A program made the position numbers and the translations under genes. Below the pieces are notes generated by a model, which was given only the letters and a program-made list of their open reading frames with translations, did not search any database and had not been told where the DNA came from. A stretch of 49,477 nt of DNA from a virus (lineage: Duplodnaviria > Heunggongvirae > Uroviricota > Caudoviricetes), in the IMG/VR virus record IMGVR_UViG_2541047944_000004, positions 1-49,477 of that record; one strand, given 5' to 3'. Shown piece after piece: positions 1 through 42,183 of the stretch. Positions within the stretch are counted from its first letter, which is position 1. Each line of letters starts with the position of its first letter.

Positions 1-1236
1 CTACGATAACCGCGCATTCAACATAGCTACCTGTTCGTCGTTCATGTCATCAATCCACATACCGTAAATTTCATACACCATCTGCGCAGTTTCATGCCCC
101 ATCTGGCTGGCTATAAATGCCGGGTTCGCTCCTGCCGTCAACAGCCAGCAGGCAAAAGTATGTCGCGTATGGTACGGATTACGGCGGCGAATACCAGCAC
201 GTTTTACAGCTGCATTCCATCTCGCACCCAAACTGCTTACCGAGTAATAAGGTTTCTGTTTTCCGTTACACATCCTGGGCATGAAAACAAAATGCAGTTT
301 TTGCTTTTCGGTTCTGCCGTACTCCCGATGATAAAAAGTGATTTCGCTTTTGCGATGATGCCCGGTCAGTTTGTATTGCTCTTTCAGTGCTTCAAGAGCA
401 GGCTGTAGTAGTGTTACCGTCCGGATCCCCGCATTTGTTTTTGGGGGACCGAACATATCAAGTATCGTCAGGTTTCTTCTGACATTCACAATTCCCTTCT
501 CGAAATCCACATCCTCCCACGCCAGAGCAGCCAGTTCCCCGTGACGAAGCCCGGAGTAAACGGCAAATTTCCACAAGTTCTGGCTCTGTCCTTTTTCACT
601 TTCCATTAATGCATTGAATTCTGTTTTAGATAACGGATCAGGCTTTATTCTGTTTCGCTGTAATTTTTTTACTCCTTCAAATGGTTTGGTTGATATAAAT
701 CCCGACTGATATGCAAAACGTAACAACGAACAGAGCAGGGCGATATAGTTATCAACTGTGCGCACAGTTCTTCCTTTTTTGTTGGATCTTGGATTATCCA
801 GGTAAAGCGTTTCTCCATGCAGCAGTTCATTCCGATAGTTTAAGATATCGCTATAACGAATATGTGATATTGGGGTGCTCTCAAAAATTATTATTCTGAG
901 TGTTTTTAATTGTGATTTCGTTTTCTTCATTGTGTTTGTTGTTAACTCTGTCTCTTTAATTTTTGTCCAGATATCACAAAGCTCCCCGAACGTTTTTATG
1001 ATCCTCGTTGTCACCATTTTTGCCCCAGTGCTGGACTGGGGAAAACGCCTTAAATACTCAAATTCACCGGAGTTGATTTCATGAACTATCAACGCTCTTA
1101 AATTCCCGGCCTTTTTAATGTTACTGTTAGTTACCTCCCAGCCTTTCAGTGTTTCCCGACATCGTTTTCCTCGAAACATGAACCAGATGCGAATGTATTT
1201 ACCCCGAATCTCGACACCTGTTGGTAATTTAGACAT
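1..1236 (-). CDS. int: Tyrosine recombinase / phage integrase
   Basis: 411-aa ORF; C-terminal catalytic region with HTRHT...Y motif typical of lambda-family integrases; stop codon at window position 1-3. Confidence 0.9.
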   Translation of the reverse strand: MSKLPTGVEIRGKYIRIWFMFRGKRCRETLKGWEVTNSNIKKAGNLRALIVHEINSGEFEYLRRFPQSSTGAKMVTTRIIKTFGELCDIWTKIKETELTTNTMKKTKSQLKTLRIIIFESTPISHIRYSDILNYRNELLHGETLYLDNPRSNKKGRTVRTVDNYIALLCSLLRFAYQSGFISTKPFEGVKKLQRNRIKPDPLSKTEFNALMESEKGQSQNLWKFAVYSGLRHGELAALAWEDVDFEKGIVNVRRNLTILDMFGPPKTNAGIRTVTLLQPALEALKEQYKLTGHHRKSEITFYHREYGRTEKQKLHFVFMPRMCNGKQKPYYSVSSLGARWNAAVKRAGIRRRNPYHTRHTFACWLLTAGANPAFIASQMGHETAQMVYEIYGMWIDDMNDEQVAMLNARLS

Positions 1237-1552: not shown

Positions 1553-1741
1553 TCACGAGGGCAGAAGTTTCTCGCAATTAAAATTTATCAGCTTTACTTT
1601 CTGCTCTCTGGAAACGCCTGCTTCTTTTTTCCCCGAGAGCATTTTTTCGCATTCCGATTTGGTTAACTTTGTTTTTGAGTACCTTGTCCAGTTAGTAGGA
1701 GTGCCACCTTCCTTTTCAATAGTGGCGGTAATTTTATACAT
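1553..1741 (-). CDS. Hypothetical small protein (62 aa)
   Basis: ORF with strong GGAGG RBS 5 nt upstream of ATG at 1741; overlaps last codons of upstream gene. Confidence 0.5.
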   Translation of the reverse strand: MYKITATIEKEGGTPTNWTRYSKTKLTKSECEKMLSGKKEAGVSREQKVKLINFNCEKLLPS

Positions 1742-2641: not shown

Positions 2642-3417
2642 GCTGCCACCTTCTGCTCTGCGGCTTTCCGTTTCAGGAATCCAAGAGTTTTCACTGCTTC
2701 GGTCTGCGTCAGTTCTGATGATGCGCGAATGTCGCGGCGAAGTATCTGGGAACAGAGCGGCAATAAGTCGTCATCCCATGTTTTATCCAGGGCGATCAGC
2801 AGAGCGTTAATCTCCTGCATGGTTTCATCGTTAACCGGAGTGATGTCGCGTTCCGGCTGACTTTCTGATGCGGTATTTTCGACAATGCGCTCGGCTTCAT
2901 CCTTGTCATAGATACCAGCAAATCCGAAGGCTAGACGGGCACACTGAATCATGGCTTTATGCCGTAACATCCGTTTGGGGTGCGACTGCCACGGCCCCGT
3001 AACTTCTTTGCCTTCGCGGGTTTTGAATGGTTCGCGGCGGCACTCATCCATCCACTCGGTAACGCAGATCGGATGATTGCGGTCCTTGCGGTAAATCCGG
3101 CATGTACAGGATTCATTGTCCTGCTCAAAGTCCATACCATCAAACTGCTGGTTTTCATTGATGATGCGGGACCAGCCATCAACGCCCACCACCGGAACGA
3201 TACCATTCTGCTTATCAGGGAAGGCGTAAATCTCTTTCGTCCACGGATTAAGACCGTACTGGTTGGCGACGATCAGCAGCGCGATGAATTGCGCATCGCT
3301 GGCATTGCCTTTAAATGCTGTCTGGCGAAGAGTGGCGAGCAGTTCCTGCGGGTCGACAGTATCCATGCCGACACGTTCAGCCAGCTTCCCGGCCAGCGTT
3401 GCGAGTGCTGTACTCAT
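2638..3417 (-). CDS. bet: Recombinase Bet (Red-beta, single-strand annealing protein)
   Basis: 259-aa translation near-identical to recollected lambda Bet ([18 protein letters not shown]...KAAEQKVAA); ATGA overlap with exo. Confidence 0.95.
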
Positions 3418-3422
3418 TCGTT

Positions 3423-3722
3423 TTATACCTCTGAATCAATATCAACCTGGTGACGCGCAATGGTTTCAACCATGTACCGGATGTGCTCCGCCACGCGTTC
3501 CTGAAATTCAACATCGTCATCAAATGCGCGACTGATTGCCTGTTTGCTGGCACCGTGGCGTTGCAAATGGTCGATGCAGAGCGATTCAAACAGGTGCTGG
3601 GGCAGACCTTTTTCCAGGTCGTCCGCCAGTTCCGTTTCTTTTTCTTCGCGAACGATCTTCTGGTAGTGGCGTGACCATGCCAGCTCTTCAATGCGATCAA
3701 AAATCGGGCATGTGCTCATCAT
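3423..3722 (-). CDS. gam: Gam, RecBCD inhibitor
   Basis: Translation matches C-terminal 98 aa of lambda Gam ([29 protein letters not shown]...HQVDIDSEV); start may be at internal Met because upstream gene overlaps. Confidence 0.85.
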
Positions 3723-5712
3723 CTGTTACCCCAAAATTTTCAAGTTTGTTTGCGATCATCATTGCAATACCCGGAATTAATGGCGCTGAGGCTATACCTG
3801 CAGGATTCGCACATAAACCGTAAACCGCCGCAATCACCACTTGTCTTTTCCAGTCGAGTTTTTCTAATGATGAAGCTGCTGCTTCGCCAGTTTCATCACT
3901 GCAATCGCGATGCGGATCGCTGCCAGCATTCTCCTTGTGTGGATGTTCAGCGCCTTCCATTTTCTCCGGCTCATTTTCCCGAACTTCAACCTGATTCTCG
4001 TCATCGAATGTTTCCTGATATATTGCGTCGCCCATCACCGCACCACAGTCAGGGCAGTTATCCCCGCTAGACTGACCGCAGGCATTGCAAACTTTTTCTA
4101 CTTCCTGTTGCGCCACTGGTTCAGGCTGTTTCGTTTCTGGCTCGTTTTGTAACGCATTTGGGCTGTTTTGTTCCGCTTTCTGGTCGTTCTGTTCCGATTC
4201 TTGTTGGTTCTGGTTCACTGAATCGCGGGTTTCAATCCCCTTCACCCATTTCGGATCATTCGGGTCGCTAATCCCCTCAACAAATTCACCACGTGATGCA
4301 GCAAGCAACTTATCGGCATCGACAGGATTTTTTGATGGAATGTTTTTCCGGGCTTCATGGAGTTCTGCCCGCAGTTCTTGATATTTCGCATCAACAGAAT
4401 TTACCTGTGACTGAGCATCCAGCGGCTGCGTGTCCTGATGATGTTCAGTTGCGTCCGGTTCCATTGTTTCAGCCTCTCCCTGTTCATCTGCCGTTGTTCC
4501 AGATGGTTGCGGTTTTTCTTCATCATCCTGTTTTCCTTCTTCTGTTACACGCTGCGGCATCGGGGCAGAGGAACGACCGCAGGCAATATCCACGATTTCC
4601 GGATCAGGGTTGGCATGATCAGTTTCAGTCAGTACTTTGTTCAGATATTCAGTGACGTGCGCGGGGGTGACCTCGATCCCAATTGGTGCTTCTTTCACGG
4701 ACGCAACCACGATGGCGCGGGAATAATCCAGCCCGCCAGGCATGGTGATGAATTTGTCGCGGAAAACAGAAAAGGGCGGTTTATTTTCAGCGATAATTTC
4801 CTCAATGCGTTTAGCGTGTGCCGGATGAAGGTTATAGATGTCCACGTCCATTGAACGGGCAAGTACGCCAGTGGCTACATCGCGTGCCAGTGACGTCAGA
4901 TCGTGGACGAAACCTTCGCCGCGATCGGTGAGGTTCCCGCCGCCAGCATTAGCACCGGAAGCCGTGCGAGTGATGCGTGAAACACGATTTCCTTTCATCC
5001 ACTCTTTTGTCAGCAGACCGCGATCGGTGTAGTCTGCGTCCAGGTATGCTTCGAAAAAAGCAGTCATCAGCCCCAGACTTGAATTGCCTGGATTAGGGAA
5101 AACTTTGTCAGTATCACGAACCAGTCTGTGAAGATCGCGAATCTCCAGCAGGTCGAGCAGGCTGGTTTTGTGGGAAACAGCCAGGGCAGTAACAGCTGGT
5201 AGTTCTTCAGCCCGTGCAATATGTAATGTCTGGAGTTCGTCGCGTGAAACGTGCGTTACCGGTTTTTCGCTGCCGTGTTGAGCAAGCCAGCGAATGGGCA
5301 GCTCTTGGCCAGAAATCGGGAGTAGCATATTCTCCTCAATCTCAGTCATGTCTTCGCCATTAACATTGGTATTGTCAGTGCTGGCTGGTTTGTCCTGCGC
5401 AGAGGATGAGGGCGCGATAAATACCATTGTGATGCCATCTTCCCCGCCTTTTTCGTAACGGTTGCAGAATTCCGTATCAAATACGCCTTCTGGTGGAAGG
5501 TCATCAACAACGGGCAAATTGACGCGAACAGGTTTTTTAAAGTCATCTTCATCGTAGCCAGCATCGTCAATCGCAACAGCACCACGGGAGATGGCAATGG
5601 ATAATTTTTTCGCTTCAGCCCAGTAGAAACCGCCTTTAATACCGAGACGTTTTCTTACTTTGTCATTTTTTGCTTCGTAATACAGTGGGTAAACTTGTTT
5701 ATCGGTGCTCAT
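3697..5712 (-). CDS. Large acidic hypothetical protein (671 aa) with CxxC...CxxC zinc-ribbon and C-terminal hydrophobic segment
   Basis: Long uninterrupted ORF in early-left operon upstream of gam; low-complexity Q/E/D/N-rich centre; CNACG...CPDCG motif; hydrophobic C-terminus. Confidence 0.6.
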
Positions 5713-6715: not shown

Positions 6716-6779
6716 TTTAAAAAGGGGCGGCAGGGCAGCCACGGAGTAGAACTGATGCCGCTAAAGACTACACACAGCA
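6716..6779 (-). ncRNA. dicF: DicF-like small RNA (ftsZ-targeting) with intrinsic terminator
   Basis: Minus-strand sequence UUUAGCGGCAUCAGUUCUACUCCGUGGCUGCCCUGCCGCCCCUUUUU closely matches recollected E. coli DicF core and its GC hairpin plus U-run; exact 5' end uncertain. Confidence 0.6.
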
Positions 6780-7886: not shown

Positions 7887-8306
7887 TTACTCCGGTGGGG
7901 GATTATCTTTAAGCCTGCCTCTCAAATATTTTTCTACATACTCATCGATTTCTTTTAGCCGGACTTCAAATAGCTCAATCATTCGTTGTTGTTCTGAGCC
8001 CGGTAGCTGGTTAAACAACTCAAGAAGTTTTCGTTGGGATTCATTTAACCACAATTCAGAAGATTCCTGTTCTCCAAAGAGGAGCTCAGGGGGAGATATG
8101 CCAAGTGCCTTTCCCAATACGACAGCGTCATGCACTCCAACATTTCTGCTGCCCGCCTCATAGTTACCTATACGCGATTGCGTCCATCCGCAGATTTCAG
8201 CAAGTTTTCCTTGAGATAAACCAAGCTTCTGCCTGCGCTCTTTAAGACGCATTGCAATTTTGTCATTGAGCCTACTAGCGGCAATTTTTTCGTTTTCTTT
8301 TTCCAT
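7887..8306 (-). CDS. Prophage repressor, HTH XRE family (CI/DicA/RacR-like), no S24 peptidase domain
   Basis: N-terminal HTH (LGLSQGKLAEICGWTQSRIGNYEAG), 139 aa; divergent from Cro-like gene; C-terminus lacks Ser-Lys peptidase motifs. Confidence 0.85.
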   Translation of the reverse strand: MEKENEKIAASRLNDKIAMRLKERRQKLGLSQGKLAEICGWTQSRIGNYEAGSRNVGVHDAVVLGKALGISPPELLFGEQESSELWLNESQRKLLELFNQLPGSEQQRMIELFEVRLKEIDEYVEKYLRGRLKDNPPPE

Positions 8307-12879: not shown

Positions 12880-13341
12880 TTATTTGTTTTGTAATGCTTT
12901 TTTTACAACCATAAGCATAGAACTAATGACTTCCAGTGTAATATTTAATGACAATGCAATGGATAATATTTCAAATGTGGTAAATAATCGCGCTCTTGAC
13001 ATAAAAAACTCCCATTTTGGATATTCTAGCAAAGGTATATCCATCTCCCTTAAATAAGGAATAAAAACGGATGCACCAAGACAAAAAATCAGGATTTTTA
13101 AATCTAATTCCAGCTTGACAAAATAATCATCAAATACATGTTTATTATTTTGAGGGCAGATGTTGATTAGCATGCTAAAAATCACTGATATACCAGCGAT
13201 GATGCCACCTAAGGTGGCACCAATAATACCAGCTGAAGACTGTTCGATTATAGAGTAAGTGTTTTTATCCTCTGAGGAAAAAATAAAGCAAATTACACCA
13301 ATAACAATTAGTCTCACCATCAAGGTTGCTAGTTTTTGCAT
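12880..13341 (-). CDS. Four-helix inner-membrane protein (153 aa), candidate RexB-like effector
   Basis: Four hydrophobic segments; GIIGATLGGIIAGISVIF resembles the G.GATL...AG segment I recall in lambda RexB; start overlaps upstream gene stop by 13 nt; AT-rich. Confidence 0.6.
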   Translation of the reverse strand: MQKLATLMVRLIVIGVICFIFSSEDKNTYSIIEQSSAGIIGATLGGIIAGISVIFSMLINICPQNNKHVFDDYFVKLELDLKILIFCLGASVFIPYLREMDIPLLEYPKWEFFMSRARLFTTFEILSIALSLNITLEVISSMLMVVKKALQNK

Positions 13342-14267
13342 TTTTCAAACCGATAATCTTTTCTTACTAGGGAAATAATGTCCTTTACGTCATTTGCAGA
13401 ATAACCACTTAATGTGCATTCTGAAAGAGAACCATCTACAAAAATTAATTTTGCTGTAGGCTCACTATTTAAAGTAATACTTTTGGCTGTAGGACTCTTT
13501 TTCCCTTTTATCTGCCAACTTCCTCCGCCATCATTAGTCCAATCAACTAAAACATTTGCCCATGTGGAATCACGAAGATTAAGATTTCCATCTTTATTTT
13601 CAAATGTTGTGGTTAGAGCAGTAGCATTGGTATCATCTTCTATTTTGTTTAAGGCGTCTGTTAGTGCTTTTTTACTATCCCCAAAAATATTTGGCATAAC
13701 AAGAGCAAATGTCACTTGCTCAATATGCCTTAACTTGTCATATTCAACCCAAAAGTTGTCCTTCTCCAGACAAGGTTCAATAAATATGCGTAATCCTTTT
13801 TCGACGAGGTAATCATTGTTAGATAATTCCTCAAACATCATTGCCGCATTGTGAGCACTTTTAAAAACAGTGGTTTTTCGTTCAATTAAAATAACTTGTT
13901 CTTGACGATCCCATAACCATACTACAGGAGGGAAACTTGGAACATTGTATTCTTGAAAGTCCTCATTGTAACCATGCAGTTTCTTTTGTTTCGAAATCAA
14001 ACCTGCCATGACCCCATCAGTCGGGGCGACAGAAAGTTTTAATCTATACTGCCAGTTTTTATGGACAGATGGTGTTTGTGACACTCGTTTTATATTTTTT
14101 GATGCGTGAACGATCGCTTGCTCAAAGTGTTCAATACATCGCTCTTCGCCACTATGCTGAAACAAATCTGGATCTCTGGGCTTTAATAGTACGCGTAAAG
14201 CAAAAAAAAATACATTGAGAATCTCCATATAAAGTTTACCGCTATTATCACTATTCCGAGGAAACAT
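13329..14267 (-). CDS. Hypothetical soluble protein (312 aa), upstream partner of membrane protein; candidate sensor of a two-gene abortive-infection cassette
   Basis: Long ORF in markedly AT-rich DNA; no recognised catalytic motif; T9 run within codons 22-25; C10 run 5 nt upstream of ATG. Confidence 0.6.
   Translation of the reverse strand: MFPRNSDNSGKLYMEILNVFFFALRVLLKPRDPDLFQHSGEERCIEHFEQAIVHASKNIKRVSQTPSVHKNWQYRLKLSVAPTDGVMAGLISKQKKLHGYNEDFQEYNVPSFPPVVWLWDRQEQVILIERKTTVFKSAHNAAMMFEELSNNDYLVEKGLRIFIEPCLEKDNFWVEYDKLRHIEQVTFALVMPNIFGDSKKALTDALNKIEDDTNATALTTTFENKDGNLNLRDSTWANVLVDWTNDGGGSWQIKGKKSPTAKSITLNSEPTAKLIFVDGSLSECTLSGYSANDVKDIISLVRKDYRFEKCKN
14202..14210. repeat. Homopolymeric A9 (T9 on coding strand) within 5' coding region of the 312-aa gene
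   Basis: Seen directly: caaaaaaaaat on plus strand, encodes VFFFA. Confidence 0.9.
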
Positions 14268-14282: not shown

Positions 14283-14399
14283 CTTCAAACTAAAATTGTT
14301 GGCAGCAACATGTCCGATAGGTAGAATTGCTGCGGGTGCTTGAGGCTATCTGCCTCGAGCATGTCACCAAAGGCAGATAGAGAAAAGCCCCAGTTAACA

Positions 14400-14470
14400 T
14401 TCGGCGTCCGGCAAGACGCTTAACATTAATCTGAGGCCATATCTATGACTTGCACACGTAGGTTAGCCTC
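14400..14470 (-). ncRNA. Putative Sok-type antisense RNA region
   Basis: Inferred only from hok/sok family organization (antisense to hok leader); boundaries not determinable by eye. Confidence 0.3.
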
Positions 14471-14501
14471 TTACGTGCCGAAAGGCAAGGAGAAGCAGGC
14501 T

Positions 14502-14657
14502 ATGAAGCAGCAAAAGGCGATGTTAATCGCCCTGATCGTCATCTGTTTAACCGTCATAGTGACGGCACTGGTAACGAGGAAAGACCTCTGCGAGGTACGA
14601 ATCCGAACCGGCCAGACGGAGGTCGCTGTCTTCACAGCTTACGAACCTGAGGAGTAA
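14502..14657 (+). CDS. hok: Hok/Gef family type I toxin (HokD/RelF-like)
   Basis: MKQQKAMLIALIVICLTVIVTALVTRKDLCEVRIRTGQTEVAVFTAYEPEE matches Hok family; in-frame upstream extension from 14445 may be a mok-like leader. Confidence 0.85.
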   Translation: MKQQKAMLIALIVICLTVIVTALVTRKDLCEVRIRTGQTEVAVFTAYEPEE

Positions 14658-14877: not shown

Positions 14878-15051
14878 ATGAAAATCGAAGAATTACGTGA
14901 AATTTTTAGTGAAGATGGCCTCTATGCTGTGCGCGTTGAGAATGGAGAAGTTATCTACACAACGTTAATTCCTGATGATCATGTGATTTTATCTATTGAG
15001 GCATTCATTGAATACCTGGAAAGGCTCGGTTTCAAGGTGGTTCGGGAATGA
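14878..15051 (+). CDS. Hypothetical small protein (57 aa)
   Basis: ORF below track cutoff found by hand (MKIEELREIFSEDGLYAVRVENGEVIYTTLIPDDHVILSIEAFIEYLERLGFKVVRE); GGAAGGA RBS. Confidence 0.4.
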   Translation: MKIEELREIFSEDGLYAVRVENGEVIYTTLIPDDHVILSIEAFIEYLERLGFKVVRE

Positions 15052-16895: not shown

Positions 16896-16971
<76 letters not shown>

Positions 16972-16974
16972 TAT

Positions 16975-17049
<75 letters not shown>

Positions 17050-33919: not shown

Positions 33920-34533
33920 AAATCGCGCGAAATCTGAATCTGATTATTCCTGTCCGGACAGAAAAGGGTAATGGCTGGATCCATGCCACACCGATCAGCA
34001 AAGAGGTGTTTAAAGAGCATTTCTTCATCCTGAGTAAAACCTTTTCTGCCATTTTTTCTGAAGGTCTTGGCGTCGTTGCGGGTCCGCGTATCGCCTGCCT
34101 TATGCTGGAACGGATCTCCTCAGATATGAACATCTGGGATGGCGAAAAGGGCGTTCGTAATACGCTCGTGAATGAAATCATTCGCCTTGCGAATCTGGTT
34201 TACCCAGTCGAAGGGAAAGGTTATGACACGCTCCCGCTTGATATGGCGCTGGAGCGCGGCATCGTTGAATTTGATGATGTGGCAGGTGAACTCGTTTTTT
34301 TTACATGCGTCTCGTCGATAAACACACCGGAGCAGACGGAGCAGATGATGCTGGCAGTCAGTGGAATGTGGAACAGTCGCACTTCATCCTTGAGTCTTAC
34401 GGAATGGATTGCTTCATTGCCGACATTGAAGCCTGTCGCCAGTTCTGGCGCGACGGCGAGCACGTTATCAGCGACATCCTCGACTACTCAGCCGGAGACG
34501 GATTCTGCGACATCTGGGCAAATTCCGGTCTGA
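33916..34533 (+). CDS. Tail assembly chaperone (G-like)
   Basis: ATGA overlap with tube gene; precedes tape measure; contains T8 slippery run near codon 127. Confidence 0.6.
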   Translation: MKIARNLNLIIPVRTEKGNGWIHATPISKEVFKEHFFILSKTFSAIFSEGLGVVAGPRIACLMLERISSDMNIWDGEKGVRNTLVNEIIRLANLVYPVEGKGYDTLPLDMALERGIVEFDDVAGELVFFTCVSSINTPEQTEQMMLAVSGMWNSRTSSLSLTEWIASLPTLKPVASSGATASTLSATSSTTQPETDSATSGQIPV

Positions 34534-34607
34534 ATGTAAAAACAGCAGCTCAGTTTCGTGAGCTGCGTAAATGCACGACGCCGGGAGGTGTATTGAATGT
34601 CAGGTAA
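33916..34607 (+). CDS. Tail assembly chaperone, predicted -1 frameshift fusion product (GT-like)
   Basis: Frame -1 ORF opens at 34290 and runs to 34607; slippery T TTT TTT at 34296..34302 permits -1 shift. Confidence 0.45.
34296..34302 (+). other. Candidate -1 programmed ribosomal frameshift slippery heptamer (TTTTTTT)
   Basis: Seen directly in the zero frame as GTT TTT TTT ACA; -1 frame is open from 34290. Confidence 0.5.
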
Positions 34608-39279: not shown

Positions 39280-39315
39280 AAAGCCCCGGCTGCTGGAACA
39301 GTTCGGGGCTTTTTG
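39280..39315 (+). terminator. Rho-independent terminator after spike gene
   Basis: AAAGCCCCGGctgctggaacagttCGGGGCTTTTT. Confidence 0.55.
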
Positions 39316-39403
39316 TATCAACAGAACAGTATTTGTAATGGCATGGAGATTACTCATGCAACCAAATTCTAGCGCACCTAAAGATAAATTTGGAGACGAT
39401 TTG

Positions 39404-39553
39404 ATGATTAAGGCTGAGACAACCCCACAAGGGGCTGATAAGGCTGCGAGAATAATCGCAGTATGTCGGGGTATTCGGCATATTCTGACTCCAGTAGCGT
39501 GGATCATTTGCACCGCTCTGGTTACCGGCACCTTAATTTACTTGAAAGGTTGA
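39404..39553 (+). CDS. Small membrane protein (49 aa)
   Basis: GGAGA RBS; C-terminal hydrophobic helix. Confidence 0.35.
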   Translation: MIKAETTPQGADKAARIIAVCRGIRHILTPVAWIICTALVTGTLIYLKG

Positions 39554-39556
39554 CGT

Positions 39557-39904
39557 ATGAGAACATGGGGCCGCGTCACCGACGCGAACGGCAACAAAAA
39601 ATGGGTTGCTGTAGAATCTGACGCCAACGGTGATTTCTCCTACGGCTGGCTGACGACGCTCATTCAGACGTTAAAGCTGGGGTTGGGGGAGTCGCCGTTT
39701 TACGCGAATTACGGTATTCCAGCGCAGCAGTGCATCGTGCAGCAAATTTACCCGGACTACTATGTGAACATGGTTCAGCAACAGTTTGCCGGGTATTTTG
39801 CATCGCTGGCAATTTCAAAGGTAGATGGGGCAGAGAACCCCACCTATAACATCGATGTTGTGTTTTTTAACGGAACCAGTTACCGGACGCAGGTTCCGGT
39901 TTGA
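39557..39904 (+). CDS. Baseplate protein (115 aa)
   Basis: ORF in baseplate cluster. Confidence 0.5.
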   Translation: MRTWGRVTDANGNKKWVAVESDANGDFSYGWLTTLIQTLKLGLGESPFYANYGIPAQQCIVQQIYPDYYVNMVQQQFAGYFASLAISKVDGAENPTYNIDVVFFNGTSYRTQVPV

Positions 39905-40377
39905 GGCAAGTTTTCGGGCATCAGTTGGGCCAGTGGCGTGTTAAGAAGTTCATCGCGTGGCATGACAATCCATCCACTTTTGCGTAGTAAGTGAATTGCC
40001 CATTCTGTGGTTATAACTGAGCCTGATTTATGGTGCTCAATGTGGGTAACCGAGCCGTTTCTGACGCGCATGATGATGTCAACATTCAGAGGGGATTGTG
40101 TGCTGGTGGTATCCTCGCGCAGCTTTTTCTCGCACTCGATGAAGTATCGGCGGATCTGGTGGCCTTTTTCGTTGCGCTCAACCATCGCCAGCTCTTTGGC
40201 GGTGTCCAGGGTTAGGTGGTAGTCTTTAGCTGGTCTGCCTCTACCGATTTTTTCCCGATTTTGGGAAATAATCAAAAAGTCCTGATTTTCTACGAATTCA
40301 TACTCGCTGATTCGCTCGGTGATCCATGTAGCAAAGCGTTTACCTACTTCGAGAAAGGCGTGCATCATAAATATCAC
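39880..40377 (-). CDS. Antirepressor, AntA/AntB-like
   Basis: N-terminal region (ISEYEFVENQDFLIIS...DYHLTLDTAKELAMVERNEKGHQIRRYFIECEKKL) matches recollected AntA antirepressor domain; opposite strand inside tail module. Confidence 0.65.
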   Translation of the reverse strand: MIFMMHAFLEVGKRFATWITERISEYEFVENQDFLIISQNREKIGRGRPAKDYHLTLDTAKELAMVERNEKGHQIRRYFIECEKKLREDTTSTQSPLNVDIIMRVRNGSVTHIEHHKSGSVITTEWAIHLLRKSGWIVMPRDELLNTPLAQLMPENLPQTGTCVR

Positions 40378-40386
40378 TGCCTGATT

Positions 40387-40935
40387 TTACATGTTTTCTT
40401 TACAGGAATTGATTGCAGCCTTATATGCTTCCGGAAGGCCATCTAATGGGAAGAATATTTTTTGTGGTTTTTCTTTACTTTCAGTTGGCGGAGTGTACCA
40501 AAAAGAAAAACTACCTTTCCCTTTAGATTTTAACAAATCACTAATCTTTAATGAGCTAATAGGACTGAACAAGTAACCTTCATTGATAGATGGGGTTGTT
40601 ATAGAGTCCTGCTTTTGTTGTCCACTGATTTTATAGCTTACAGGAAGGAACGGTGGTAAATCCATTTGTTTATATCCAATAAAATGATTGACAGTTACAT
40701 CACCGGGCTCACATTGAGTTAACGGTGATATATCAATAAATAAAGTTGATTTATCCTGCGGCAATTTGGATTCAACACCAATACGATAAGCCATAGTGGT
40801 AGGCATGGTAAACTCAGCATAATACCATTTACCAAATTGTTGAATGTCATTCATTCTCTCTGTGGCATCAATTGCATGAGAAACACCAGAAAATAGCAGT
40901 GAGCTAATCAAAATCCCTAATGAGTTAAATTTCAT
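40387..40935 (-). CDS. Secreted protein with cleavable signal peptide (182 aa), unknown function
   Basis: N-terminal MKFNSLGILISSLLFSGVSHA signal peptide; AT-rich; 9 nt upstream of ant gene on same strand. Confidence 0.6.
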   Translation of the reverse strand: MKFNSLGILISSLLFSGVSHAIDATERMNDIQQFGKWYYAEFTMPTTMAYRIGVESKLPQDKSTLFIDISPLTQCEPGDVTVNHFIGYKQMDLPPFLPVSYKISGQQKQDSITTPSINEGYLFSPISSLKISDLLKSKGKGSFSFWYTPPTESKEKPQKIFFPLDGLPEAYKAAINSCKENM

Positions 40936-40956
40936 AAAATCCTCTTGAGATTAATT

Positions 40957-42183
40957 ATGTCAGAAATACCAATTACTATGACCAGTGCGGGTGCGCAGCC
41001 TACGCCACCCAATGACTTGCTCGCGAATCTTATCACCAGAGTTGCTGAAAAAGTACCTGGATATACAGCCAACCTTCCGGCGGGACTTATTACAGACCTT
41101 GCCAGCACGGCTGTCGGGGCGCTGGCATTAATAGACCAGGCGCGGGTGGATCTTATTAACTCCGTAAGCCCATACGGCGCGAATATTCCGTTACTGATGC
41201 AACTCGGAAACATTTATGGAGCACAGAAGGGATTAAGTACAAATACGGCGGTATACGTGGTGTTTGAGGCGTTGCCGGGGTTTGGTATCCCTAAAGGATT
41301 TGTTGTCGGTGACGGCAACTACCAGTATGCAGTTTCCCGCGATACGGTGGTGCCGGAAAGCGGGCAGACTGAGCCAGTCTACTGTGTGGCCATAACGTCA
41401 GGCTCATGGGCTGTACCGGAAGGAACCGTAACTCAGGTCATTACATCGGTACCCAAAGATCAGCCTGTAAAATGCACGAACCTTACCGCAGGAATGCCAG
41501 GTCAGGAGGCGCAAACGTGGGCATCTTACCGCGCCGAAGTCATGGAGTCTGGCATGTTTGGTGTGCAGGGAACACCGGATTGCTTTAAAGCGATGCTCAA
41601 ATCAGTAAGCGGTGTGCGCGAAAACCTGATTTCTTTCCGGCAGTCGTCGCTGGGGAAATGGGTTGCGGTTGTTGGTGGCGGTGATCCGTATGACGTGGCT
41701 TATGCGATTTACAAATCTGTACCGGATATTTCGAAACTGACCAACGATGTAAGCAATCCATCCGGTGCGGCAGTGGAAAAACGCACGGTTTCAATAACCG
41801 TTTCGCCGGACGTTTATCAGGTGCCGTTCGTTATCCCGTCATCACAAAACGTCATGGTGCTAATCACCTGGAACACGGTGTCTGATGATTATGTTGACCC
41901 GGCGGGTATTGCTATGGCTGTGCAGAAAAACGTTGCTGATTACATCAATTCTATTGAAGTCGGTCACCCGATAAATCTGCTGCGAATCCAGGATATTTTT
42001 ACCAGCTCCGTAAAATTGCTGGTTGATGCGACGTTGATCTCAACAATCAGTGTGAGCATTGGTATTAACGGTCATATTGTTCTTCCGGCAAAAGACACAA
42101 GCCTGGTTTATGGCGATACCTATTCCTATTTTTCGACGGTGGCATCACAGGTTCAGGTCAATAAGTATGCAATATCTGACTGA
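40957..42183 (+). CDS. Baseplate J-like protein
   Basis: About 400-aa protein followed by overlapping I-like gene and tail fiber. Confidence 0.65.
   Translation: MSEIPITMTSAGAQPTPPNDLLANLITRVAEKVPGYTANLPAGLITDLASTAVGALALIDQARVDLINSVSPYGANIPLLMQLGNIYGAQKGLSTNTAVYVVFEALPGFGIPKGFVVGDGNYQYAVSRDTVVPESGQTEPVYCVAITSGSWAVPEGTVTQVITSVPKDQPVKCTNLTAGMPGQEAQTWASYRAEVMESGMFGVQGTPDCFKAMLKSVSGVRENLISFRQSSLGKWVAVVGGGDPYDVAYAIYKSVPDISKLTNDVSNPSGAAVEKRTVSITVSPDVYQVPFVIPSSQNVMVLITWNTVSDDYVDPAGIAMAVQKNVADYINSIEVGHPINLLRIQDIFTSSVKLLVDATLISTISVSIGINGHIVLPAKDTSLVYGDTYSYFSTVASQVQVNKYAISD

Follow-up and report, generated by a model that had tools for sequence, protein, structure and literature searches.

Two opposite-strand genes within a baseplate module

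The window, by which we mean the whole stretch of DNA analysed (49,477 nucleotides, positions 1 to 49,477 of IMG/VR virus record IMGVR_UViG_2541047944_000004), is a Rac/Qin-like Escherichia coli prophage. Two minus-strand open reading frames (ORFs) lie within its baseplate module, at 40387..40935 (182 aa) and 39880..40377 (165 aa when read from a GTG), here termed sec and ant, flanked by two plus-strand genes of the module. A preliminary description of this DNA had taken them for opposite-strand cargo comprising an AT-rich gene for a signal-peptide protein followed by an AntA-type antirepressor gene, and on position and gene content it was accurate. sec has a GC content of 35.3%, against 48.5% in the window as a whole and some 50% in the neighbouring genes, and the lysine/arginine, hydrophobic and A-x-A pattern of its N-terminus is kept across its family. 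For ant, Pfam gives the AntA family (PF08346, E 6.4e-25, 88 bits with a cut-off at 27), and several anti-repressor families of PHROG match as well. Judged by the scores of these hidden Markov model (HMM) matches, which for sec include an end-to-end match to phrog_31333 (E 4.5e-129), both genes lie far beyond chance ORFs. The locus is organized as follows, with start sites compared to those of the NCBI annotation pipeline PGAP.

39557..39904, plus strand: gene matching phrog_7986 (115 aa, PHROG match); its 3' end overlaps that of ant by 25 nt
39880..40368, minus strand: ant, 5'-truncated (162 aa, beginning MMHAFLEV); equivalent to residues 27–186 of a full-length 186-aa allele, set behind the start codon of a lost gene
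40171..40365, minus strand: remaining AntA domain (PF08346); residues 5–69 of the ORF as listed, profile positions 6–68 of 68
40364..40365, no strand assigned: deletion junction, 816 bp lost relative to positions 2961–3776 of E. coli P13-6 (sequence L002 of our comparison); BLAST break-points
40366..40382, minus strand: translation-initiation region of ant, with the Shine–Dalgarno (SD)-like AGGCAG...ATG of the lost gene; in L002 AGGCGGTGATATTTATG starts a 154-aa signal-peptide gene
40387..40935, minus strand: sec (182 aa, intact); predicted Sec-exported periplasmic protein, IalB-like β-sandwich with a C-terminal helix, AT-rich moron
40873..40935, minus strand: signal-peptide part of sec, MKFNSLGILISSLLFSGVSHA, followed by IDATE after the predicted cleavage
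40954..40962, minus strand: possible extended -10 promoter of sec, TGACATAAT, read from the sequence; weak, overlapping the start codon of the baseplate J gene
40957..42183, plus strand: baseplate J gene (PF04865, phrog_6), its start that of the PGAP equivalent; divergent from sec across a 21-bp spacer

The convergent 3' overlap of ant with the phrog_7986 gene recurs in all eight of the sequences L001–L008.

An 816-bp deletion beheaded ant

Full-length orthologues of ant span 558–570 nt (185–189 aa), cover AntA profile positions 2–68 and all share the N-terminus MT.QLIPVFNG...NARDL; in most related prophages, 260–330 bp of non-coding DNA precede the gene. The first 25 codons are missing in the window. 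Profile positions 1–5 are gone together with a 21-residue N-terminal extension, and PHROG matches begin at profile positions 26–32 or later. BLAST alignment to L002 pairs window 39402–40364 with L002 1995–2960 and window 40365–41400 with L002 3777–4812. Lost between these blocks are the first 76 nt of ant, the whole 279-bp region upstream of it and nearly all of a 465-nt gene encoding a further protein with a signal peptide (MKLKFLSLLLFVSFSSHS...); only the first four bases of this gene survive. Across the junction the sequence is ...TAAAATCAGGCAGTGATATTTATGA/TGCACGCCTTTCTC..., and ...TTTATGA/TGCACGCC... is common to the window, L001, L006, L007 and L008. The SD sequence and ATG of the lost gene are now in frame with ant codon 26, and the product opens with MMHAFLEV, as against MTTQLIPVFNGT.SNET.LLCNARDLHAFLEV in the full-length form. 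Because profile matches begin internally and the SD/ATG of the lost gene is joined in frame, we take the listed GTG start to be an artefact and the ATG at 40368 to be the true start; PGAP annotates the equivalent 489-nt coding sequence in the related prophage of E. coli TUM1881.

A full-length counterpart of this very allele exists. Viral contig L049 encodes a 186-aa form that is 99.5% identical to window 39557–40364, with a protein identical from H27 onwards and an AntA domain at residues 22–90 (profile 2–68). The converse possibility, an ancestral window form with insertions in the relatives, was ruled out on two grounds: the additional N-terminal residues complete the AntA profile, and this 99.5%-identical full-length allele exists. 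Ant has no BLASTP similarity to P1 Ant1, and we found no solved structure of an Ant homologue.

The central and C-terminal part of Ant (39880..40240, minus strand) has weak but significant similarity to the C-terminal parts of proteins with an ORF6N head (E 2e-6) or a Rha head (E 2e-4), encoded by ORFs of L043 and L058 that lie behind the RNA cassette described below. These matches point to domain shuffling, with different heads joined to a shared tail.

The deletion allele in other genomes

An identical junction is present in TUM1881, phage vB_Apl-pPE4, ETEC1747 and U90, and the deletion therefore arose once. In ETEC1747 a further 21 bp are missing, taking FLEVGKR out of the AntA domain. U90 combines the junction and this 21-bp deletion with another of 66 bp, and its copy is listed by PGAP as a pseudogene ('missing N-terminus'). 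Nine of 5,426 complete E. coli genomes have sequence spanning the junction, one of them window-like and eight with the 21-bp deletion; six of these eight appear from their match pattern to be of the U90 type, U90 alone having been inspected. sec (549 nt) is intact in all junction-bearing genomes, with a ratio of non-synonymous to synonymous polymorphism (pN/pS) of 0.05–0.23, indicative of purifying selection. We read these patterns as erosion of the deletion allele of ant while sec stays intact.

Substitution patterns within ant must be interpreted with its recombination in mind. The window ant region is 99.5% identical to that of L049, yet differs by about 5% from that of L006, which carries the deletion. 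Most ant substitutions were probably acquired in full-length genes and then moved by recombination; because the alleles are mosaics, low pN/pS in ant is not read as selection on the truncated form. The use of dN/dS as a test of ant function was judged uninformative owing to this mosaic recombination.

A proposed RNA control cassette upstream of ant in relatives

The upstream DNA that the window has lost is a structured control region in its relatives. Rfam sRNA-Xcc1 (RF02221) lies directly upstream of ant in L002–L004, scoring 70–78 bits against a gathering score of 53. The window has no Rfam match to Xcc1, C4 or isrK, and the core of the short RNA described below was not found in it even at three mismatches. 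Searching viral contigs for the Xcc1 core returned 41 loci; cassette loci include L002:3013-3277 (minus strand), L003, L004, L010 and L019–L059. Nearly all of the 41 have the element 64–89 nt before the start codon of an ORF, most of these ORFs beginning MT(T/N/S)Q..., and their products display five N-terminal domains: AntA, KilA-N (with P22_AR_C), ORF6N, Bro-N and Phage_pRha. A Salmonella prophage with a sec homologue in the same slot has its Xcc1 element ahead of a Bro-N gene.

An alignment of 26 distinct cassettes defines a conserved unit of about 230 nt, composed of a sigma-70 promoter (TTGACT-17-TACAAT in L002), a short RNA, a small hairpin, the Xcc1 element and a segment abutting the SD. 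The short RNA is formed by a GAGG-loop-CCUC hairpin, a linker and an intrinsic terminator with a U7 tail. The loop of Xcc1 hairpin 2 can form 5–9 Watson–Crick pairs both with the short-RNA linker and with bases that abut or include the SD, and comes in 10 sequence types (for example CCUCACUGA/UCAGUGAGG). The single-stranded junction of Xcc1 (GUUUCGA and four variants) pairs with the loop of short-RNA hairpin 1 and with a copy lying some 12 nt before the SD. At each site, the longest helix is longer for cognate than for non-cognate combinations (RBS, ribosome-binding site):

Short-RNA linker with Xcc1 hairpin-2 loop: cognate 6.6, non-cognate 3.75
Short-RNA hairpin-1 loop with Xcc1 junction: cognate 7.2, non-cognate 4.6
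Xcc1 hairpin-2 loop with RBS-proximal segment: cognate 7.0, non-cognate 4.2
Xcc1 junction with RBS-proximal segment: cognate 6.6, non-cognate 3.9

These predicted pairings sort into at least ten specificity types at one site and five at the other, each matched three ways between the short RNA, the Xcc1 loop or junction and the RBS. A structured antisense element with complementary RBS sites, the combination expected of a c4-type module, is thus found with three-way covariation in the relatives and is missing from the window. Where the preliminary description had left the control of ant unexplained, the native control region proves to be deleted here and to be, in relatives, a c4-like RNA cassette, not a LexA-controlled one.

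The immI region of P1/P7 (c4 antisense RNA–icd–ant1/ant2) has, in common with the present locus, an antirepressor gene outside the main immunity region; it lies next to tail genes and to simC, annotated for superimmunity. Annotation of the P1 record runs promoter, a1, b1, c4 RNA, a2, b2, icd and ant, and the cassette of the relatives follows the same plan: a promoter, a1/b1-like sites in the short RNA, an 87-nt element and a2/b2-like sites at the RBS. The Rfam C4 and Xcc1 models also share a topology of closing stem, two hairpins and single-stranded junction. Unlike immI, however, the relatives use sRNA-Xcc1, an element outside the C4 clan, rather than C4 (RF01695), and their cassette has no icd-like leader ORF; in the window the cassette is deleted altogether. 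sec was also considered as a homologue of P1 SimC and rejected (hhalign probability 0.2%).

A second comparison is with IsrK–orf45–AnrP of Gifsy-1, in which a terminated short RNA acts on its own read-through mRNA and translation of the antirepressor-like protein needs RNA–RNA pairing (PMC4825925). The layout is that of the relatives' cassette, with a promoter-proximal short RNA ending at an intrinsic terminator. The relatives differ in having neither an isrK match nor an orf45-like upstream ORF, and the window keeps nothing of the cassette. Because models of C4, c4-a1b1 and isrK all fail on the leader of the relatives (no match at E ≤ 10), the Xcc1 cassette is a different sequence family of the same design as the C4 and isrK systems. 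Separately, the Rfam isrK model matches the a1/b1 region of P1 (L060, 48230–48311), upstream of c4, at 35 bits, below its gathering score, suggesting a relationship between IsrK of Gifsy-1 and the a1b1 portion of c4-type systems.

sec encodes a predicted exported protein with an IalB-like fold

The N-terminus of sec, as read from the sequence and its alignment, has K2, a hydrophobic core and S-H-A at positions -3 to -1 (family motif A-x-A). A21 is invariant in 13 close homologues and conserved in at least 90% of a 40-member alignment, across which W37, C75 and C178 are invariant; a C75–C178 disulfide is likely. Clustering of the family gives 13 groups at 90% identity and 51 representatives at 50%. 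Searches of sec against Pfam, NCBIfam, PADLOC and PDB sequences returned no match, nor did a PDB sequence search with the family profile. None of the 40 family members matched anything in Pfam at E ≤ 0.1, the IalB family PF06776 included, and PADLOC defence models matched neither sec, ant nor the alternative cargo of the slot.

A first structure prediction from 13 sequences was discarded (predicted local distance difference test (pLDDT) score of 54). The AlphaFold model from the 40-sequence alignment has a pLDDT of 88.7 and consists of a β-sandwich followed by a C-terminal helix. Its sole strong structural neighbour is IalB of Bartonella (Foldseek E 2e-4, template-modelling (TM) scores of 0.58 and 0.70), so that sec, by predicted structure, has an IalB fold. 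Sequence identity to IalB (PDB 3DTD; PF06776) is 11–14%, and unlike IalB, sec has an extra C-terminal helix tied by the invariant cysteine pair. A viral structure library adds uncharacterized proteins of phages RB16, KP15 and VH7D and a phage 'IalB' protein as neighbours. To our knowledge, no molecular mechanism or function has been established for IalB, and the likeness therefore assigns no function to sec.

In prophages of Salmonella and of Buttiauxella, the latter having no ant, 50%-identical homologues stand in the slot that sec has here, likewise divergent from baseplate J, and a 32%-identical relative fills this slot in another phage. More distant members are found among toxin–antitoxin morons in a siphovirus tail operon, in an integrase–primase satellite-like element without tail genes and, in a Geobacterales genome, at the edge of a putative prophage-like element. 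Other E. coli relatives carry different genes in the slot (L002:3316-3780, L003:3301-3840 and L004:3375-4121), all of whose products have N-terminal signal peptides and one of which is annotated as an LprI-family lysozyme inhibitor. As a side observation, the phage tape-measure protein carries an SLT transglycosylase domain, suggesting a possible functional link.

sec resembles the morons of prophage late operons in being an opposite-strand, low-GC, small gene with a predicted exported product in a slot of variable content. It differs from typical morons in that no clear promoter and terminator pair surrounds it and in that the same slot is held across genera, and it is therefore older than a typical recent moron. 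A consensus scan of 39300–41500 found no sigma-70-type promoter and no terminator. The 21-bp spacer between sec and the baseplate J gene leaves room only for the extended -10-like TGACATAAT, a motif not kept in the 50%-identical homologues L009–L011. A lysogenic-conversion or exclusion role fits these genomic contexts, and our best guess is that sec would act in the periplasm in the service of the lysogen, in exclusion, envelope protection or host interaction.

The repressor and an alternative antirepressor candidate

Two genes outside the baseplate module bear on how this prophage might be induced.

7887..8306, minus strand: DicA-type repressor; HTH_3, a helix-turn-helix (HTH) domain, only (residues 21–75), no peptidase domain
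14878..15051, plus strand: Rem-like ORF (57 aa; phrog_340, E 4.3e-18), directly after hok/sok

The preliminary description had also proposed that the repressor lacks an S24 autopeptidase and belongs to the DicA/Gifsy type, for which antirepressor-mediated induction is known (PMC3121763, PMC10448788), and both parts are borne out. HMM searches of 7887..8306 gave HTH_3 and no S24; the protein aligns over the full length of DicA (NF007257, E 1.4e-15, profile 4–131 of 135) and is 29% identical to K-12 DicA (E 2e-15). In Salmonella, GfoA and GfhA are antirepressors of Gifsy-type repressors (PMC3121763), and Rem of Qin derepresses the DicA-controlled dicBp 165-fold, a promoter not induced by mitomycin C (PMC10448788).

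That ant is the only candidate antirepressor no longer holds, since the Rem-like ORF sits where Qin has rem, the gene of a proven DicA antirepressor. Over the first 26 residues it is 73% identical to Qin Rem (E 2e-12), the C-terminal half being different; the DNA upstream of it closely resembles that in front of Qin rem; and it lies where the Qin order hokD–rem–ydfU would place it, making it a small Rem homologue in the syntenic place after hokD. It emerged by comparison with Qin, PHROG scans of early-region ORFs and of those at 11.4–22 kb having given no further annotated anti-repressor. The window thus shares with the GfoA/GfhA–GfoR/GfhR and Rem–DicA systems a short, HTH-only, DicA-like repressor and a Rem-like ORF in synteny after hok/sok, but its Rem-like protein is 57 aa long, against 83 aa for Rem. 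By size and domain, GfoA and Rem are proteins of a different kind from ant, and tblastn of Rem against the window showed no similarity to the ant region. We regard the Rem-like protein as an alternative antirepressor candidate; homology does not prove it to be the cognate inducer.

LexA control of ant, noted as lacking in the preliminary description, was rejected here by a consensus-weighted scan as well as by a CTGT-N8-ACAG search, which found nothing relevant in the window or upstream of ant in relatives. The window has no perfect CTGT-N8-ACAG at all and no one-mismatch site upstream of ant or of the Rem-like ORF; the regions upstream of ant in the relatives likewise have no site with one mismatch. 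The locus differs in this respect from LexA/SOS-controlled antirepressor modules (Gifsy, 186 Tum and N15 AntC), there being no LexA box upstream of ant here. The sequence CTGAATGTAAAAACAG at 34530..34545 (plus strand), apparently inside the tail gene region, resembles a LexA box with one mismatch and an AT-rich spacer, and is probably fortuitous.

Origin and fate of the insert

We consider it likely that the 1.06-kb insert is a cassette remnant in which sec is intact cargo and ant a truncated, decaying gene rather than an induction switch, a Rem-like-type factor being more plausible in that role. Among Rac/Qin-like E. coli prophages whose repressors are of the DicA type, this accessory cassette would fill a slot of variable content between two baseplate genes. 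A single 816-bp deletion took the sigma-70 promoter of ant, the c4-like antisense-RNA cassette (a short terminated RNA, the Rfam sRNA-Xcc1 element and RBS-proximal target sites), the first 25 codons and the gene of a second secreted protein, and left the rest of ant fused in frame to the SD/ATG of the lost gene. sec would be made in the lysogen from its own weak promoter, as a periplasmic lysogenic-conversion or exclusion factor. ant begins 19 nt past the sec stop codon, and because it has no promoter of its own (none in the scan of 39300–41500) it would be expressed only by read-through from sec. With the N-terminal strands of AntA lost, its product would be a decaying remnant and not a repressor-inactivating switch, and induction would run more plausibly through another factor such as the Rem-like protein of 14878..15051.

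Morons are usually expressed in the lysogen. If sec is so expressed, an active antirepressor made alongside it would be expected to destabilize lysogeny, a consequence that fits the erosion of the sister copies. The preliminary proposal of ant as induction switch fails on these points: the first 25 codons, the promoter and the leader are gone, eight of nine carriers are further eroded and the U90 copy is a PGAP pseudogene. The preliminary interpretation as a whole is partly supported, half right in what it said of sec and of the repressor type and wrong on ant.

Several observations pull the other way. The truncated ORF is open in all five deletion-bearing sequences examined, the secondary deletions of 21 and 66 nt are both multiples of three, pairwise pN/pS among truncated ant alleles is 0.05–0.22, which could mean continued selection, and the Pfam-defined AntA domain is short of only 5 of 68 positions. 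The open frame and in-frame secondary deletions amount to a mild argument for residual function. On the expression side, the candidate sec promoter is a weak consensus match. As for the proposed inducer, the Rem-like ORF shares only the N-terminal 26 residues with Rem, and its C-terminal variant, present in 55 genomes, is not strictly tied to this repressor allele, present in 153; the spacing of about 7.3 kb that separates the two in the window recurs in two genomes among the matches listed (60 of the 153 repressor records).

Such observations could be taken to mean that the deletion gave ant a new role, the sec–ant operon co-expressing a shortened Ant in the lysogen, for instance as a decoy against the antirepressors of other prophages. 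The in-frame fusion to a bona fide SD/ATG, the ORF open in all examined carriers with in-frame secondary deletions and low pN/pS, and the nature of the central and C-terminal region as a shuffled module that also stands behind Rha and ORF6N heads (pairwise E 2e-4 and 2e-6) would all suit it. We nevertheless regard this as unlikely: the secondary deletions strike the conserved core (FLEVGKR in the AntA domain, 22 residues in the central region), two deletions out of two would both be in frame by a chance of 1 in 9, the low pN/pS is accounted for by recombination, U90, the most eroded of the copies examined, is flagged as a pseudogene by PGAP, and the window-like form occurs in one of 5,426 complete E. 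coli genomes. Quite improbable, in our judgement, is that the AntA protein of the window still functions as an antirepressor, binding the repressor that lacks a peptidase and triggering prophage induction under some form of control. Its strong AntA match (E 6.4e-25), open frame and low pN/pS, together with a repressor that lacks S24 and is of a DicA/Gifsy type with established antirepressor-mediated induction (PMC3121763, PMC10448788), would be accommodated. Yet ant has lost 25 codons, promoter and leader; placed right behind a moron, its expression would follow sec and not an inducing signal; a constitutive active antirepressor would be incompatible with stable lysogeny; and sister copies of the allele are eroding. 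GfoA and Rem are, moreover, small proteins of a different kind, Rem having no tblastn similarity to ant, a Rem-like gene is present, and BLASTP similarity to P1 Ant1 is absent.

With regard to sec, its place beside baseplate J, kept in prophages down to 32–50% identity, might suggest a structural or assembly part of the baseplate instead of cargo, an explanation we find scarcely credible. sec runs opposite to the late operon, is AT-rich and has a predicted cleavable signal peptide; its homologues include a member among toxin–antitoxin morons of a siphovirus tail operon and one in an integrase–primase element without tail genes; and many relatives hold unrelated secreted proteins, or none, in the slot. 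On these contexts, sec is very unlikely to be a virion component.

Returning to the interpretation of the insert as a cassette remnant, we lean slightly towards a broader form of it. The locus would be the wreck of a second RNA-based immunity module in which Xcc1 forms the c4-like antisense core gating mosaic antirepressor-like genes; the window would be a natural knockout whose ant has slipped out of this control and been captured by the moron sec, and sec would represent a new periplasmic exclusion or conversion family. The sRNA-Xcc1 of intact relatives may then be no free-standing trans-acting small RNA, the heads of the gated proteins being AntA, KilA-N, ORF6N, Bro-N and Rha. In enterobacterial prophages, sRNA-Xcc1 is accordingly suggested to serve as the c4-like antisense part of a control cassette, modular and hypervariable, placed before antirepressor-like genes; this may be RNA-based control of a kind not yet described as such. 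If this is true, the cassette would be relevant to how co-resident prophages influence one another's induction.

The window item itself is ordinary, a conserved moron with a decaying gene fragment fused behind it, and the main by-products are an uncharacterized family of IalB-fold exported proteins recurring as prophage cargo and, outside the window, the Xcc1-based cassette. The beheaded, unregulated ant illustrates that an 'antirepressor' label on an ORF does not make it an induction switch. The baseplate slot of Rac/Qin-like prophages collects exported proteins, among them the IalB-fold family and LprI-type lysozyme inhibitors, and is a good place to seek periplasmic exclusion or conversion factors.

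Setting of the prophage

The window opens with the integrase gene (1..1236), followed by the RalA/RalR region, recT and recE, a kil-like gene, DicF and then the genes for the DicA-like repressor and Cro-like and YdaT-like proteins. Replication genes, hok/sok, a Q-like gene and two tRNA genes come next, succeeded by lysis, head and tail genes. From about 20 kb on, the window is collinear with the prophage of E. coli TUM1881 at 96.7% identity; further close relatives are Escherichia phage Rac-SA53 and a record named Actinobacillus phage vB_Apl-pPE4 (PP818812.1, L008). Over the region, the latter matches this E. coli Rac-like prophage at 97% identity, and its sec is identical in DNA; because of this, its stated Actinobacillus host looks doubtful.

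Rfam matches above gathering score in the window are RalA antitoxin RNA (1557..1735), DicF (6725..6776), sok antisense RNA (14334..14507) and the two tRNA genes (16896..17046). A second AT-rich (34.9% GC), opposite-strand two-gene cassette lies in the early/replication region at 12880..14267 (minus strand). PHROG and PADLOC searches returned no match for its products of 153 aa (hydrophobic by eye) and 312 aa, and we note it as a candidate moron or defence cassette.

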